From contig CM000151.3 in the NCBI GenBank assembly GCA_000004695.1, forward strand, positions 864,001-928,000: DNA of 64,000 bases. Direction: 5' to 3'. Numbering within the stretch: position 1 is the first letter of the stretch; each line of letters begins with the position of its first letter. This DNA comes from Dictyostelium discoideum. Lineage: Eukaryota. Below, one piece after another: positions 1 through 3,057 of the stretch. A model generated the notes under the pieces. That model made no database searches. It was given only the letters and a program-made list of their open reading frames with translations, and was not told the origin of the DNA. A program made the translations under genes and the position numbers.

Positions 1-1156
1 TCTTATCAACTATTAAATTATTATTTGAATCAATAAGTTTGGAATTAATAAATTGTTGCTGTTGTTGTTGTTGTTGTTGTTGTTGTTGTTGTTGTTGTTG
101 TTGTTGTTGTTGTTGTTGTTGTTGTTGTTGTTGTAGTTGTTGTTGTTGTTGTTGTGGTAGTTGTGGTAGTTGTGGTAGTTGTGGTAGTTGTTTTTGTTGT
201 TGTTGTTGTTGTTGTTGTTGTTGTTGTTGTTGTTGTTGTGGTTGGTGTTTTTGTTGTTGTGGTAGCTGTGGTAGTTGTTTTTGTTTTTGTTGTTGTTGTT
301 GTTGTTGTTGTTGTTGTTGTTGTTGTTGTTGTTGTTGTTGTTGTTGTTGTTGTTGTTGTTTTGTTAACTCTCTCCAACTGTTGTATTGGGTTTCATTTAA
401 TTTTTTAATTTCATTCATTAATGGGTTAACGGTTGAGTCATTAGATAAAGTCTTTTCAAAATTTCTTTTGGCATTTAAACATGAGCTTCTATTATCTGAT
501 ATGATAAATGGGATTAGTTTTAAAATTGGAATTAAAGTTTCTATTTTTTTTTCTTTAATGAAATCATTATTTATTTTTTCAAATTGAGTTTCAAAGAATG
601 ATTCAATTTCATTTTGTTTTCCACGATTTAATATACATTCTTCAATTTTAAAAGGTTGATTGGTTAGTGGTTCTTTTGAATTACATTTTTCTAATGTTGA
701 ATATGAATAAGTGTGACCACTACATTGAACAATGTGAGGATTTATTAAAATTATTCCTGTAATATTATCTAATAATGAATCTGGTGCAATATTTGAAAAA
801 TAACTTTCGAGGGTTTCTTTTACATTATTATTATTATTATCACTATTATCACAAGCTTTCTTATTAATATTTTTATTTTTATTATTATTTTTTTCACTAT
901 TAATATTTTTTAATTTATTAATATTTTTATTGTTATTATTATTATTATTATTATTATTATTATTATTATTATTATTATTATTATTATTATTATTATTATT
1001 ATTATTATTATTATTATTATTATTATTATTATTAATATTATTATTATTATTATTATTATTAATATTATTATTATTATTATTATTAATATTATTATTATTA
1101 TTATTATTAATATTATTATTATTATTATTATTATTATTATTATTATTATTATTCAT
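1..1156 (-). CDS. U-box domain (E3 ubiquitin ligase-like) protein with N-terminal polyN and a polyQ tract. Partial: the 3' end runs off the window start.
   Basis: ATG at 1156-1154 (minus) is followed by (AAT)n giving polyN. The frame stays open through 361-1150 and through the (GTT)n=(CAA)n polyQ tract down to position 2 (codon tops congruent to 1 mod 3 throughout). Hand translation gives ...FSNIAPDSLLDNITGIILINPHIVQCSGHTYSYSTLEKCNSKEPLTNQPFKIEECILNRGKQNEIESFF..., which matches the U-box consensus (P-D-x-L-L-D-x-I-T ... SGHTY ... PLTNQPF). It is absent from the ORF track only because no stop codon falls inside the window. Confidence 0.6.
   Translation of the reverse strand, partial: MNNNNNNNNNNNNNNINNNNNNNINNNNNNNINNNNNNNNINNNNNNNNNNNNNNNNNNNNNNNNNNNNNNNNNNNKNINKLKNINSEKNNNKNKNINKKACDNSDNNNNNVKETLESYFSNIAPDSLLDNITGIILINPHIVQCSGHTYSYSTLEKCNSKEPLTNQPFKIEECILNRGKQNEIESFFETQFEKINNDFIKEKKIETLIPILKLIPFIISDNRSSCLNAKRNFEKTLSNDSTVNPLMNEIKKLNETQYNSWRELTKQQQQQQQQQQQQQQQQQQQQQQQQKQKQLPQLPQQQKHQPQQQQQQQQQQQQQQQKQLPQLPQLPQLPQQQQQQLQQQQQQQQQQQQQQQQQQQQQQQQQQQFINSKLIDSNNNLIVDK
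54..361. repeat. Imperfect (GTT)n / (CAA)n microsatellite of about 300 bp with GTGGTAG interruptions. It encodes a Q-rich tract (Q/L/P/K) of the minus-strand U-box gene.
   Basis: Direct reading. All three plus frames and the minus frames stay open across it, which explains the polyC/polyV/polyT ORFs in the track. Confidence 0.9.
931..1150. repeat. (ATT)n microsatellite with ATTAAT interruptions. On the minus strand it is (AAT)n, encoding polyN with scattered I.
   Basis: Direct reading. It lies immediately 3' of the minus-strand ATG at 1156. Confidence 0.9.
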
Positions 1157-1700
1157 TTTTTATGGATGTATAAATTTTAACTTTACACAAAGAAAAAAAA
1201 AAAAAAAATAATAAAAAAAAAATTATAAAAAAAAAAACAGTGATGATGATTTTTTGGTGGACGTATAAATTTTAAGTTTACAAGCAAAAAATAAAAAAAA
1301 AAAAAAAAATAAAAAATAAAAAACAGTGAAGAATTTTATTTTTTTGAAAAATATTTTGATCAAGATTTGGAAAGCCAAAAAAAAAAAAAAATCTCAAAAA
1401 TCTATTCGTAAAAAAATTGAAAAAAGTTTCAAAAACTATTCACACAATAATTGCGTATTTTTTATTGATTATTAAAATCATTATAATTATTATTGTCATT
1501 ATTATTATTATTATTATTTTCCAGCTTTTTTTTTTTCTTACAATTGATATTTATTTTATTTTTTATATATTTATTTCTATTTACACCATGATTGGATTTT
1601 TTTTTTTTTTTTTTTTTTAATTTTTTTTCATTACTATTTTTGTTTTTTTTCTTTGTTCTTTTTCGTTTCCTCTTCAAATTTTTCGTCTGGCTCTGAGGTA
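1143..1700. repeat. Segmental duplication, copy A (paired with 2259-2780). It carries an ATG plus polyN start, the 5'-flank motif GGATGTATAAATTTTAACTTTAcACAAAG, an oligo-A tract, the ...TTCCAGCTTTTTTTT...TTTACAc(c)ATGATTGGATTTTTTTT block, and the remnant of a gene 3' end.
   Basis: Colinear high-identity blocks are readable by eye: 1150-1192 vs 2266-2308, 1452-1618 vs 2430-2560 and 1640-1690 vs 2600-2650. Confidence 0.6.
1159..1290 (+). promoter_or_regulatory. Two copies of a ~30-bp element, G(G)A(T/C)GTATAAATTTTAA(C/G)TTTACA, each followed by oligo(A). They contain a canonical TATAAA box. A third copy lies at 2277-2308.
   Basis: Direct repeats at 1161-1190, 1257-1288 and 2279-2308. Orientation and spacing relative to the minus-strand ATGs 8-10 nt away are atypical for a core promoter of those genes. 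A plus-strand transcript is possible. Confidence 0.3.
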
Positions 1701-1762
1701 ATTGATCACCAATTAAAACTGTAGCAATAAAGATTTGATTTTTATTTTGTGGAGTTTTATAA

Positions 1763-2270
1763 CTATTCTCTACCACCTTTTTCAATTTCTATTAAGCAAT
1801 TATCTTCATTAAGATCCCATCTATTTGGATAAATGATTTTATTATTATTTTTAAATTCTAAAATTTGAGATTTAATATCTAGAACTTGTTCTTTAAGACC
1901 TTCTAAATTTACAACCATTGAAATTTTTTTGTATCATAATTTGAATATTAATAATACTTTCTGAATATTTATTTATTATAACTAAATCTTCCAATTTCTT
2001 TAAAAATGATTCTATATCATTTATGTTACCATTGACCATAATTTCATATTTATTTTTACCATTATTATTATTATTATTATTATTATTATTATTATTATTA
2101 TTATTATTATTATTATTATTATTATTATTATTATTATTATTATTATTATTATTATTATTATTATTATTATTATTATTATTATTATTATTATTATTATTAT
2201 TATTATTATTATTAATATTATTATTATTATTATTATTATTATTATTATTATTATTATTATTATTGTTCAT
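1763..2270 (-). CDS. PolyN-start hypothetical protein (copy-B-type start fused to a different body). It is possibly spliced, or it may be a pseudogene.
   Basis: Minus ORF 1893..2270 reads M-N(~68)-GKNKYEIMVNGNINDIESFLKKLEDL.... A second clean reading frame, LKEQVLDIKSQILEFKNNNKIIYPNRWDLNEDNCLIEIEKGGRE*, lies +1 out of frame downstream. A 58-nt GT..AG intron (donor GAA A|GTATTA at about 1957, acceptor AGAAG| at about 1900) would join them with consistent phase. The intron is very short, so confidence is low. Confidence 0.25.
2060..2262. repeat. (ATT)n microsatellite; on the minus strand it is (AAT)n polyN.
   Basis: Direct reading. Confidence 0.9.
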
Positions 2271-2553
2271 TTTTTAATGGATGTATAAATTTTAACTTTA
2301 TACAAAGAAAAAAAAATAAAGATATAAAAAAAAAAATAGAAAAAAAAAAAACAAAAAAAAAAATAGTGACGAAGGTTTTTTAGTGGAGGGCAAATTTTAG
2401 TTTAAAAATATTTGTATACTATTCACTATAATTGCGGATATTTTATTAATTATAAAATTATTATTTTCCAGCTTTTTTTTTTTTTTTACAATATTATTTT
2501 TGTTGGTTTTATTTCTATTTACACTATGATTGGATTTTTTTTTTTTTTTTTTT

Positions 2554-3057
2554 TTAATTTTTTTCATTATCGCTATTTTTGTTTTTTTCTTCTTTTTCTT
2601 CTTCTTTATTCTTTTTCGTTTCCTCTTCTAATTTTGAATTTAATTTTTTTCTAATTTCTGAATGTGTTTTTCTTTGTTTATTTTTTTTTCTTTGTTCTGC
2701 TTTTTTCTTAACTTTTAATTCTTCTTCTAATTTTTGTTGCTCCCTTCTTTCACTAAACTCGTTATTTGATAGTTCCTAAAAAAAAATTAAAAAAAAAATA
2801 AAAAATGATGGGGTTAGTTGTGAAAAAAAAAAAAAAAAAATAAATAAATAAAGTGTTATTTTAAAATATACTTTTCTATCATTTTTATCCATCTCTTCTA
2901 ATCTTAAAGTTTCCTTTCTTCTTAAATTACGATAAACATGAAAGTCGCCACTTGATGAACCTGCTGTCGAAGATGAAACATGTGCAACAATCTTATATTC
3001 CTCACCAATTGTTGATGTAACTGATGAAGTGTTGTTTTTAGTATTCGATTCTGACAT
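2554..3057 (-). CDS. Small charged nuclear-type protein of about 135 aa, in two exons.
   Basis: Real ATG at 3057 (the track's M at 3063 is a TTG). Exon 1 is 3057..2872: MSESNTKNNTSSVTSTIGEEYKIVAHVSSSTAGSSSGDFHVYRNLRRKETLRLEEMDKNDRK, with donor AAA|GTATAT. The intron is ~96 nt and T-rich, ending TTTTAG. Exon 2 is 2775..2554: ELSNNEFSERREQQKLEEELKVKKKAEQRKKNKQRKTHSEIRKKLNSKLEEETKKNKEEEKEEKNKNSDNEKN*. The intron is phase 0. Confidence 0.45.

Follow-up and report, generated by a model that had tools for sequence, protein, structure and literature searches.

Genes and repeated blocks at the locus

The window, a 64-kb stretch of Dictyostelium discoideum DNA, begins with the 5′ part of a U-box/PARP gene, hereafter the parent, which extends past the window edge; its full form was taken from a second D. 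discoideum assembly (L005, 99.83% identical to the window), where it occupies 1848-6938 and is called as a gene of 1604 aa. Upstream of it lie a spacer (copy A), the annotated orphan DDB_G0271768 (hereafter the putative relic), modelled as 73 aa in AX4 and as 150 aa in another assembly, a second spacer (copy B) and an intact DUF1168 gene. The features are as follows.

1..1155, minus strand: 5′ part of the parent, with the ATG at 1155-1153, polyN to ~930, U-box at ~787-584 and polyQ at 380-40
1156..1616, minus strand: spacer copy A, the 5′ flank/promoter region of the intact U-box/PARP gene (alignments, motif scans)
1572-1596 and 1156-1335, minus strand: elements in spacer A, respectively the copied post-stop element and two ~95-nt ATG-proximal units
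1617..1682, minus strand: tail copy A, degenerate DUF1168 last codons (KFEEETKKNKEKKQK) plus stop, with a 14-nt deletion relative to 2635-2554 (alignment, translation)
1682..1685, minus strand: probable tandem-duplication junction, reading ...CCTCAGAGCCAGAC, then GA, then AAAATTTGAAGAGGAAACG (three-way view of relic, parent and DUF1168 tail)
1685..1766, minus strand: relic piece P, homologous to parent PARP catalytic-domain codons SYKTPQKLNQIFIATVLIGDSITSEPD (L005 2083-2001), with a 1-nt deletion (blastn, junction views)
1767..1941, minus strand: relic piece K2, homologous to parent NYDTKTSNVNLEGLKEQVLDIKSQILEFKNNNKIIYPNRW...EIEKGGK (L005 2656-2487) (alignment)
1942..2060, minus strand: relic piece K1, homologous to parent codons SKNKYQIIVKGNINDIRSFVKELEDLVIKYKYSENIINIQ (L005 2836-2717), in phase 0 with the ATG at 2270 (pairwise and 4-way alignments)
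2062..2270, minus strand: relic ATG (2270-2268) and (AAT)n polyN tract (match to the copy A start region, comparison of tract ends)
2271..2553, minus strand: spacer copy B, with the DUF1168 post-stop element at 2510-2534 and the 5′ flank/promoter region of the relic (alignment to copy A, motif scans)
2271-~2410, minus strand: ~95-nt units in spacer B, one good and one degenerate copy
2554..3057, minus strand: intact DUF1168 (PRKRIP1-family) gene (Pfam DUF1168 E 2.4e-26, profile positions 15-133 of 137), with exon 1 at 3057-2870, an intron at ~2869-2776 and exon 2 at 2775-2554 including the stop

In L005 the domain order of the parent is U-box, Macro, WWE, polyN, a weak KH-like match and PARP, and the Pfam matches have E values of 3.9e-7 (U-box), 1.8e-22 (Macro), 7.2e-7 (WWE) and 2.9e-16 (PARP, in the last exon). 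The last of these, to the catalytic domain PF00644, places the parent in the PARP family, and the weak match, to KH_PARP14_3, falls in the segment homologous to relic piece K2. The D. discoideum clade 3D PARP DDB0232928 has an N-terminal U-box and a Macro domain (Citarelli et al. 2010, PMC2964712), and the parent has exactly that architecture (U-box, Macro, WWE, PARP), suggesting, by domain architecture alone, that the two are the same gene; the upstream relic is not mentioned in that paper. A word-indexed protein search with the U-box region returned no matches, the D. discoideum protein itself included, which we treated as a database gap. The protein search with the DUF1168 gene, at whose position a 135-aa gene is called in L005, found orthologs in D. 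citrinum, D. dimigraforme and D. firmibasis and did not return D. discoideum's own protein, and this was treated in the same way.

Gapped local alignment of 1143-1720 with 2259-2800 gave a score of 280, compared with 116±10.9 (maximum 145) for locally shuffled sequence and a mean of 105 (sd 21, maximum 171) for 297 real AT-rich 542-nt segments (GC<=17%) from the rest of the window, revealing that the blocks ~1155-1682 and ~2270-2635 are true homologues. The sequence-only reading had drawn these blocks at 1143-1700 and 2259-2780; their homology stands, as do the ordered, non-simple features that they were said to share (5′ flank, ATG, polyN start and small-gene 3′ end, in the same order), and their extent had to be corrected. 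In a global alignment of copy A with copy B, 321 of 347 ungapped columns are identical (92.5%) and 245 columns are gaps, most gap columns in the spacer alignment being sequence missing from copy B; the similarity has a sharp end at 1682/2635. A scan of the 64 kb for unique motifs revealed 18- and 25-nt sequences common to these two blocks alone. Exactly three occurrences were found of GGAYGTATAAATTTTAAS (1164, 1259 and 2279; 0.09 expected), as had been claimed for the ATG-proximal element, and exactly two of TATTTCTATTTACACYATGATTGGA (1572 and 2510; 0 expected), and the two extra copies of TATAAATTTTAA represent a ~95-nt tandem unit upstream of the ATG. The duplicated part of the DUF1168 gene is its last 81 nt, stop included (2635 to 2554, copied as 1682 to ~1617), and the degenerate copy of the small gene's 3′ end reported earlier is genuine over this part only, not over the whole of 2554-2775. 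Repeat families D1-D7 in the window are pure (ATT)n.

The gene body behind the second start

At the DNA level, the body of the relic and the distal portion of copy A's own gene share 78-93% identity, as revealed by blastn and alignment. Window positions 1756-2240 match L005 2476-3019 (E 2e-135) and 1685-1766 match L005 2001-2083 (92.8% over 83 nt, E 1.6e-29), both of these matches falling within the 1604-aa gene, and 2038-2350 match the copy A start region at L005 6703-7016 with 93% identity. For the ORF behind copy B (GKNKYEIMVNGNINDIESF...), the homologous parent segment is the one that follows the internal polyN tract. The ATG-proximal part of the relic polyN carries the 'I' interruption typical of the U-box gene's N-terminal tract, and its distal end joins codons that come after the internal polyN/polyD tract of the parent (relic ...AATAATGGTAAAAATAAATAT vs parent ...GATGATGGTGTTGTTGTTAAAAGTAAAAATAAATAT).

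Across the surviving pieces the parental frame runs through phases 0, 2, 1, 2 and 1. Piece K2 is out of frame with K1 because it lies after a 61-nt deletion and holds a 5-nt insertion, and piece P follows a frame-shifting deletion of ~393 nt, where a parental intron was also lost and the annotated stop (TAG 1765-1763) was created. The 4-way alignment was made piecewise, as one-shot MAFFT placed the relic PARP piece wrongly across this 393-nt deletion. Unspliced, the ORF from the ATG at 2270 runs for 125 aa to a stop, and with the predicted intron it reaches 150 codons, in agreement with the earlier suggestion that the gene begun by copy B may be decaying and that its reading frame can go on only through a frameshift or a tiny intron. 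The annotated or predicted 55-nt intron (1957-1903) overlies parental coding sequence and spans the K1/K2 lesion, and the AX4 protein model (P0001) joins ...YSE to KGLKEQ. Enumeration of GT..AG introns yielded hundreds of ORF-restoring combinations, for example an 81-nt 'intron' (1773-1693) that rejoins the tail in frame; the intron of DDB_G0271768 is probably a gene-finder's patch over the frameshift.

The relic has no U-box, Macro or WWE domain and keeps only 27 codons of PARP, and a Pfam search of it gave no match, so that it falls outside the PARP family as defined by PF00644. Searches of two sets of 5.8 billion and 1.8 billion proteins returned as relatives of the relic protein only itself and one PARP-domain protein of D. 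cf. discoideum (P0006, E 4.7e-16). This match, together with sequences in three species that are homologous to the parent gene at the DNA level, led us to reject an orphan or de novo gene. A processed (retro) pseudogene was likewise rejected: the copy has the spacer/promoter and the neighbour's 3′ end and lies in tandem with the parent. A contig search with the AX4 73-aa protein has nothing on record, and a literature search found no paper that mentions DDB_G0271768.

Both parental homology and disabling lesions (frame phases, TAG, domain loss) are present, as in unprocessed pseudogenes, which the relic also resembles in adjoining its parent, in keeping the promoter/flank and in combining frame-shifting indels with a premature stop and a lost catalytic domain; it differs from them in being annotated as a protein-coding orphan and in having a 125-codon ORF from the original ATG still open. 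On 122 codons, dN/dS is 0.51 for relic vs parent and 0.47 for parent vs ortholog, so that the substitutions give no sign of relaxed selection. Judged from its DNA, DDB_G0271768 would be a non-functional, decaying partial duplicate. That it is instead alive seems quite unlikely; the promoter copy would then be transcribed, the 55-nt stretch of former coding sequence spliced as a neo-intron ('intronization' across a frameshifting deletion) and a polyN protein of ~150 aa with a PARP14-type KH-like fragment produced, and the locus would hold a young gene that arose through duplication and the excision of domains.

Proposed history and competing explanations

The relic and tail copy A meet at a single novel junction between the distal and the proximal end of the repeated unit. 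Its left side consists of parent PARP codons, ending at 1685, and its right side of the DUF1168 tail, starting at 1682, with an ambiguity or overlap of at most 1-2 nt, and the junction fuses the PARP and DUF1168 tail reading frames in frame. Both copies lie on the minus strand and are colinear (tail, post-stop element, spacer, ATG units, ATG, polyN, KH-like, PARP). The upstream copy measures 951 nt compared with a unit of 5461 nt, and the ~83% that is gone is accounted for by discrete deletions. We consider it very probable that the region is the remnant of a 5.46-kb head-to-tail duplication in the D. discoideum lineage, of which the upstream copy later collapsed.

The duplicated unit would start within the DUF1168 CDS, 81 nt from its end when the stop is counted, continue through the intergenic promoter region and end ~150 nt before the stop of the U-box/Macro/WWE/PARP gene, taking in nearly all of that gene. 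This would have left, in order, the DUF1168 gene, a spacer, a shortened copy of the PARP gene running in frame into a second DUF1168 tail, another spacer and the intact PARP gene; the upstream copy would have lacked the catalytic-domain end from the start and then have collapsed. A deletion of ~3.9 kb, the endpoints of which lie within simple sequence and are not placeable to the base, would have brought the (AAT)n that follows the start codon directly against the end of the internal (AAT)n(GAT)n and removed the U-box, Macro and WWE domains, possibly through repeat-mediated recombination or slippage. The 61-nt and ~393-nt deletions, the 5-nt insertion and the 1-nt deletion would have left the surviving pieces in different frames, and further deletions would have shortened the upstream copy's spacer and the copied tail (14 nt in the tail), the remainder being a promoter copy, an ATG, polyN and three coding fragments. 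We infer this stepwise order, because none of the genomes showed a full-length intermediate in which both copies of the gene are complete.

An unlikely, but not negligible, alternative is that the short copy was made in one step by serial template switching of the FoSTeS/MMBIR type and that a full-length duplicate never existed. In that case a replication fork would have copied the DUF1168 tail and the spacer as far as the (AAT)n behind the ATG, switched by AAT homology to the internal (AAT)n, copied the KH-like and PARP part and returned to the tail. The large joins fit the signatures expected of such a process, one lying in a microsatellite and the other showing <=2 nt of microhomology, and the full-length intermediate was found in no genome examined. 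However, two long-range switches would be required in one event, and a substitution divergence of ~8-10%, along with the added small deletions (61, ~393, 14 and 1 nt, besides the gaps in the spacer), amounts to a long later decay, which means that later deletion is sufficient and argues against a one-step origin.

The surviving pieces are non-contiguous in the parent, as would be expected if a PARP 3′ fragment had been inserted upstream and the tail/spacer/ATG block separately duplicated beside it. We regard two such independent events as highly improbable: every piece has the order and orientation of the parent, the PARP fragment stops precisely at the start of the tail copy, the relic polyN begins with the parent's own ATG context, spacer blocks and coding fragments have diverged to a similar degree (92.5% vs 90.2% identity), and one duplication plus deletions suffices, with a single novel junction.

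The sequence-only reading had seen in these blocks the capture of a promoter and N-terminus by a second, unrelated gene, that is, a ~500-bp promoter/ATG/polyN module copied before a pre-existing gene body to give two genes with the same start. The same start module does head two ORFs, and the sequences after polyN do not align at the equivalent position. The 'two different gene bodies' and the 'unrelated ORF' nevertheless dissolve in the homology of the copy B body to the 3′ part of copy A's gene (E 2e-135; 92.8%): the supposed recipient derives from the donor gene's own 3′ region, follows a polyN tract in the parent too, borders on the copied DUF1168 tail at one junction and has no independent homologues in either protein set, which makes capture scarcely credible. 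Since the copy B body is homologous to copy A's gene, no capture took place; a single gene was tandemly duplicated along with its promoter and the end of the neighbour upstream, and most of the interior of the upstream copy was probably lost afterwards. Simple-sequence coincidence in an AT-rich genome, considered from the outset in view of the A/T runs and AAT repeats and of the low complexity of much of both blocks, is ruled out by the alignment controls and by the motifs exclusive to the blocks.

Promoter capture and exon shuffling create new chimeric genes, for example in jingwei-type cases. The relic resembles these in that a start module precedes other downstream sequence than in the parent, but here that sequence comes from the same gene, through internal deletion rather than gene joining. 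Partial and chimeric tandem duplicates are reportedly, according to Katju and Lynch, classes among young C. elegans duplicates; as in such duplicates, the breakpoints lie inside two genes, the truncated copy retains the parental promoter and start, and at birth the relic would have gained a foreign 3′ end in frame from its neighbour, made up of the tail of DUF1168 with the stop and the region downstream. Unlike them, it did not persist as a chimera, having lost ~83% of its length and its reading frame. The ~3.9-kb deletion resembles short-tandem-repeat deletions (slippage, single-strand annealing, unequal exchange) in joining two tracts of one gene, but its mechanism is suggested by the end points alone, with the breakpoints hidden in the repeat. 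That a homologue-less 'hypothetical protein' of D. discoideum is a fragment of its neighbour is mainly a point of annotation and method: in a genome rich in AAT, a tandem duplicate can pass for 'module shuffling' once sequence between coding trinucleotide repeats has been deleted from it. The event itself is of an ordinary kind and leaves the current understanding of genome evolution unchanged.

The locus in sister species

The syntenic comparison proposed in the sequence-only reading was run by blastn with low-complexity masking; without DUST, ~2000 low-complexity matches were obtained. The D. cf. discoideum and D. dimigraforme spacers contain one copy only, and the second copy is absent from all sister species examined, three of which bear the locus. 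The homologous sequence of D. dimigraforme is part of the long U-box...PARP gene and comes immediately behind an internal polyN tract. Informative sites in the 4-way alignment for the three groupings that bear on duplication vs the D. cf. discoideum split number 5, 6 and 2, and a duplication before that split would require an extra loss there to be assumed. A likeness of the PARP breakpoint codons to part of the D. cf. discoideum spacer (L004 ~5010-5040), noticed by eye, was unsupported (best tblastn E 0.19), and no tRNA gene was found in this spacer. The extra ~130 nt carried by spacer A matched the D. cf. discoideum spacer in poly-A/T alone by blastn, and the ~95-nt ATG-proximal unit is present in multiple copies in D. 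cf. discoideum too. In the spacer of D. firmibasis the U-box/PARP gene was not detected, and in D. citrinum the gene at this locus is reduced to a remnant. The U-box/PARP gene at this locus thus appears evolutionarily unstable, duplicated and decayed in D. discoideum and a remnant in D. citrinum.

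Repeated start blocks and the genes behind them

The minus strand carries all relevant genes, and the corresponding locus in the second D. discoideum assembly (GCA_054883475.1; L005) is 99.83% identical to window 1–8300.

Features of the locus (window coordinates)
3057→2554, minus: small two-exon gene of the DUF1168/PRKRIP1 family (Pfam E 2.4e-26)
2553→2271, minus: spacer B, the 5′ flank of gene B
From 2270, minus: gene B (ATG 2270, polyN tract, short body)
1616→1156, minus: spacer A, the 5′ flank of the U-box gene
From 1155, minus: U-box gene (ATG 1155, polyN, U-box ~787→584, Pfam E 3.9e-7), exiting at the window start
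4232–8209, plus: lipin-family ORF

Gapped local alignment of 1143–1720 (copy A) with 2259–2800 (copy B) scored 280, against 116±11 for locally shuffled controls and a best score of 171 among 297 genuine AT-rich segments elsewhere in the window (mean 105, sd 21). These controls exclude chance or simple-sequence similarity, and the ordered blocks described in the sequence-only reading are real. The 64 kb hold three copies of the 18-nt motif with TATAAATTTTAA (1164, 1259 and 2279; 0.09 expected), just where that reading had placed it, and two of the 25-nt TATTTCTATTTACACYATGATTGGA block (1572 and 2510; none expected). Globally, the blocks are 92.5% identical over 347 ungapped columns, the 245 gap columns being mostly sequence absent from copy B. 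The small gene's 3′ end is copied as proposed, to the extent of the last 81 nt of its CDS (2635→2554, as 1682→~1617) and not all of exon 2.

Directly 5′ of each ATG lies a ~95-nt tandem unit (T-run, AAGTTAAAATTTATACATCC, TCATCATCACTG; window 1156–1335 and 2271–2410), which may be a repeated promoter or 5′-UTR element; spacer A has two units, spacer B one good and one degenerate, and D. cf. discoideum at least four (L004 ~5700–5997). The element TCCAAYCATRGTGTAAATAGAAATA (2510–2534, copied at 1572–1596; L004 4809–4833), ~20 nt past the DUF1168 stop, is kept between species, was transported with the duplication and probably belongs to the 3′ UTR or termination region of DUF1168.

Identity of the body behind copy B

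Gene B encodes a product with 100% identity to DDB_G0271768, a hypothetical protein of AX4. Gene models of this stretch (window 1763–2270; L005 7542–8049) conflict, with 73 aa from an internal Met at ~2038 in AX4 and 150 aa from the polyN ATG 2270 in GCA_054883475.1; both contain a 55-nt intron. A Pfam search of the body gave no match, and among 5.8 billion proteins its sole match was DDB_G0271768 itself. Scanning 1.84 billion representatives exhaustively with HMMER added one protein, P0006 (E 4.7e-16), which comes from ‘Dictyostelium cf. discoideum’ and has 234 aa with a PARP catalytic domain. Word-indexed protein searches returned neither the U-box nor the DUF1168 protein of D. discoideum, the collection seemingly lacking both, and orthologous loci in sister species were reached via DUF1168 orthologs. 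The U-box ORF of D. dimigraforme forms exon 1 of a long gene, and gene B-like sequence (NNNN-KYEIIVKGTAEDILVFEKELENL...LEGIKEAVLEIKSQVLEFKNNNKIKYPERW) lies ~3.5 kb downstream within it, right behind an internal polyN tract.

L005 extends the window's genome leftwards and reveals that copy A heads a gene of 1604 aa, whose exons encode the U-box, Macro (1.8e-22), WWE (7.2e-7) and PARP catalytic (2.9e-16) domains, with a weak PARP14-type KH match (1.4e-5) below the Pfam cut-off. Its architecture is like that of the D. discoideum clade 3D PARP with N-terminal U-box and Macro domain (Citarelli et al. 2010, PMC2964712), from which we infer that they are the same gene. The body behind copy B is homologous to this parent gene and is not the ‘unrelated ORF’ first proposed, which contradicts promoter and N-terminus capture by an unrelated gene; of the sequence-only reading the observation stands and the interpretation only in part.

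Gene B (the relic) aligned with its parent
2060–1942, minus: L005 2836–2717 (alignment)
Between 2060–1942 and 1941–1767: 61-nt deletion and 5-nt insertion
1941–1767, minus: L005 2656–2487
3′ of 1941–1767: ~393-nt deletion
1766–1685, minus: L005 2083–2001 (92.8% identity, 1-nt deletion)

Relative to ATG 2270, the parental frame of successive relic pieces runs through phases 0, 2, 1, 2 and 1. The ~393-nt deletion, whose ends share ~7 nt of imperfect microhomology, took out a parental intron together with the PARP domain's first half and left a TAG at the join. The annotated 55-nt intron (1957–1903) covers codons that the parent carries in exon sequence (NYDTKTSNVNLEG), so it looks like a gene-finder's bridge across a frameshift and is probably spurious; it is improbable that the relic is transcribed, truly splices this former coding stretch and yields a small polyN protein containing a KH-like fragment. 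The relic (AAT)n tract opens in the same ATG context as the parent and, like the N-terminal tract, has one ‘I’ interruption; it terminates at GGT/AAAAATAAATAT, which in the parent comes right after the internal (AAT)n(GAT)n tract, so the relic lacks the ~3.9 kb (U-box to WWE) between the two trinucleotide tracts.

By inspection of the alignment, the parent's last intron (L005 ~2235–2300), which falls inside the ~393 nt, opens with a microsatellite of (GT)n/(TGTA)n-like type, GTGTCTATGTTTGTGTGTGTGTATGTGTATGTG. At window 40–380 the U-box gene carries a long (CAA)n polyQ tract interrupted by QLPQ.

Origin of the relic

The relic junction reads ...CCTCAGAGCCAGAC|GA|AAAATTTGAAGAGGAAACG, with an ambiguity of at most 2 nt; to its left are the parental ...SITSEPD codons and to its right the DUF1168 tail (...KLEEETKK), and the two reading frames meet in frame. 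The end of parent homology (1685) coincides with the start of block A/B homology (1682), which, judged from the alignments, marks a single head-to-tail duplication. The duplicated unit spans DUF1168 position 2635 to parent L005 2001 (5461 nt), of whose upstream copy 951 nt remain. When it arose, this copy would have coded for the PARP protein without the final ~50 residues, joined to the C-terminus of DUF1168 and followed by DUF1168's stop and downstream sequence; catalytically incomplete, it would have been free to decay.

The most economical history would comprise a tandem duplication whose junction was non-homologous or based on microhomology, then a deletion between the two AAT tracts plus several smaller deletions. 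One complex template-switching event would yield the same end product and is an unlikely alternative to these successive steps. Judged by its sequence, the relic is a partial or chimeric tandem duplicate that has probably become an unprocessed pseudogene, its internal deletion being bounded by repeats. Each of these kinds is well known, and the locus is ordinary in kind; new and specific to it are the derivation of the orphan DDB_G0271768 from the neighbouring gene and the probably spurious nature of its intron. A literature search for DDB_G0271768 found no paper naming it.

Distribution and age

The relic is present in both D. discoideum genomes (100% identical over 1600–2700), and the proposed comparison with sister species found a single spacer and no second copy in D. 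cf. discoideum and D. dimigraforme. Over 369 four-way columns, identity is 90.2% for relic–parent, 89.2% for relic–cf. discoideum and 93.2% for parent–cf. discoideum. Informative sites divide 5, 6 and 2 among the three groupings, so the duplication and the split from D. cf. discoideum would be of roughly similar age. dS is 0.17 between relic and parent and 0.13 between parent and cf. discoideum; dN/dS (0.51 and 0.47, respectively) does not separate the two pairs.

The D. cf. discoideum spacer holds ~450 nt of higher-complexity sequence without counterpart in the D. discoideum spacers (L004 4880–5330), with no tRNA gene and no significant similarity to the PARP gene. In the same species the ortholog of the parent gene (L004 5997–10796) carries two gene annotations, of 1141 aa and 234 aa. 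Its KH-like region shows a 2-nt gap and a TAA in the alignment (near L004 9900–9960), which reflect either a genuine split or pseudogenisation, or else a mistake in the assembly.

In D. firmibasis, the U-box/PARP gene is absent from the position between DUF1168 and UQ_con, whose 680 bp (L003 8497–9174) hold no detectable trace of it (best tblastn E ~3). In D. citrinum, the spacer downstream of DUF1168 (L001 9076–9438) contains a collapsed pseudogene remnant in which first-exon residues 503–585 (E 2e-10, in-frame stops) continue directly into last-PARP-exon residues 94–127 (E 2e-11, a stop); the U-box/PARP gene is therefore ancestral at the locus and was lost there by deletion.
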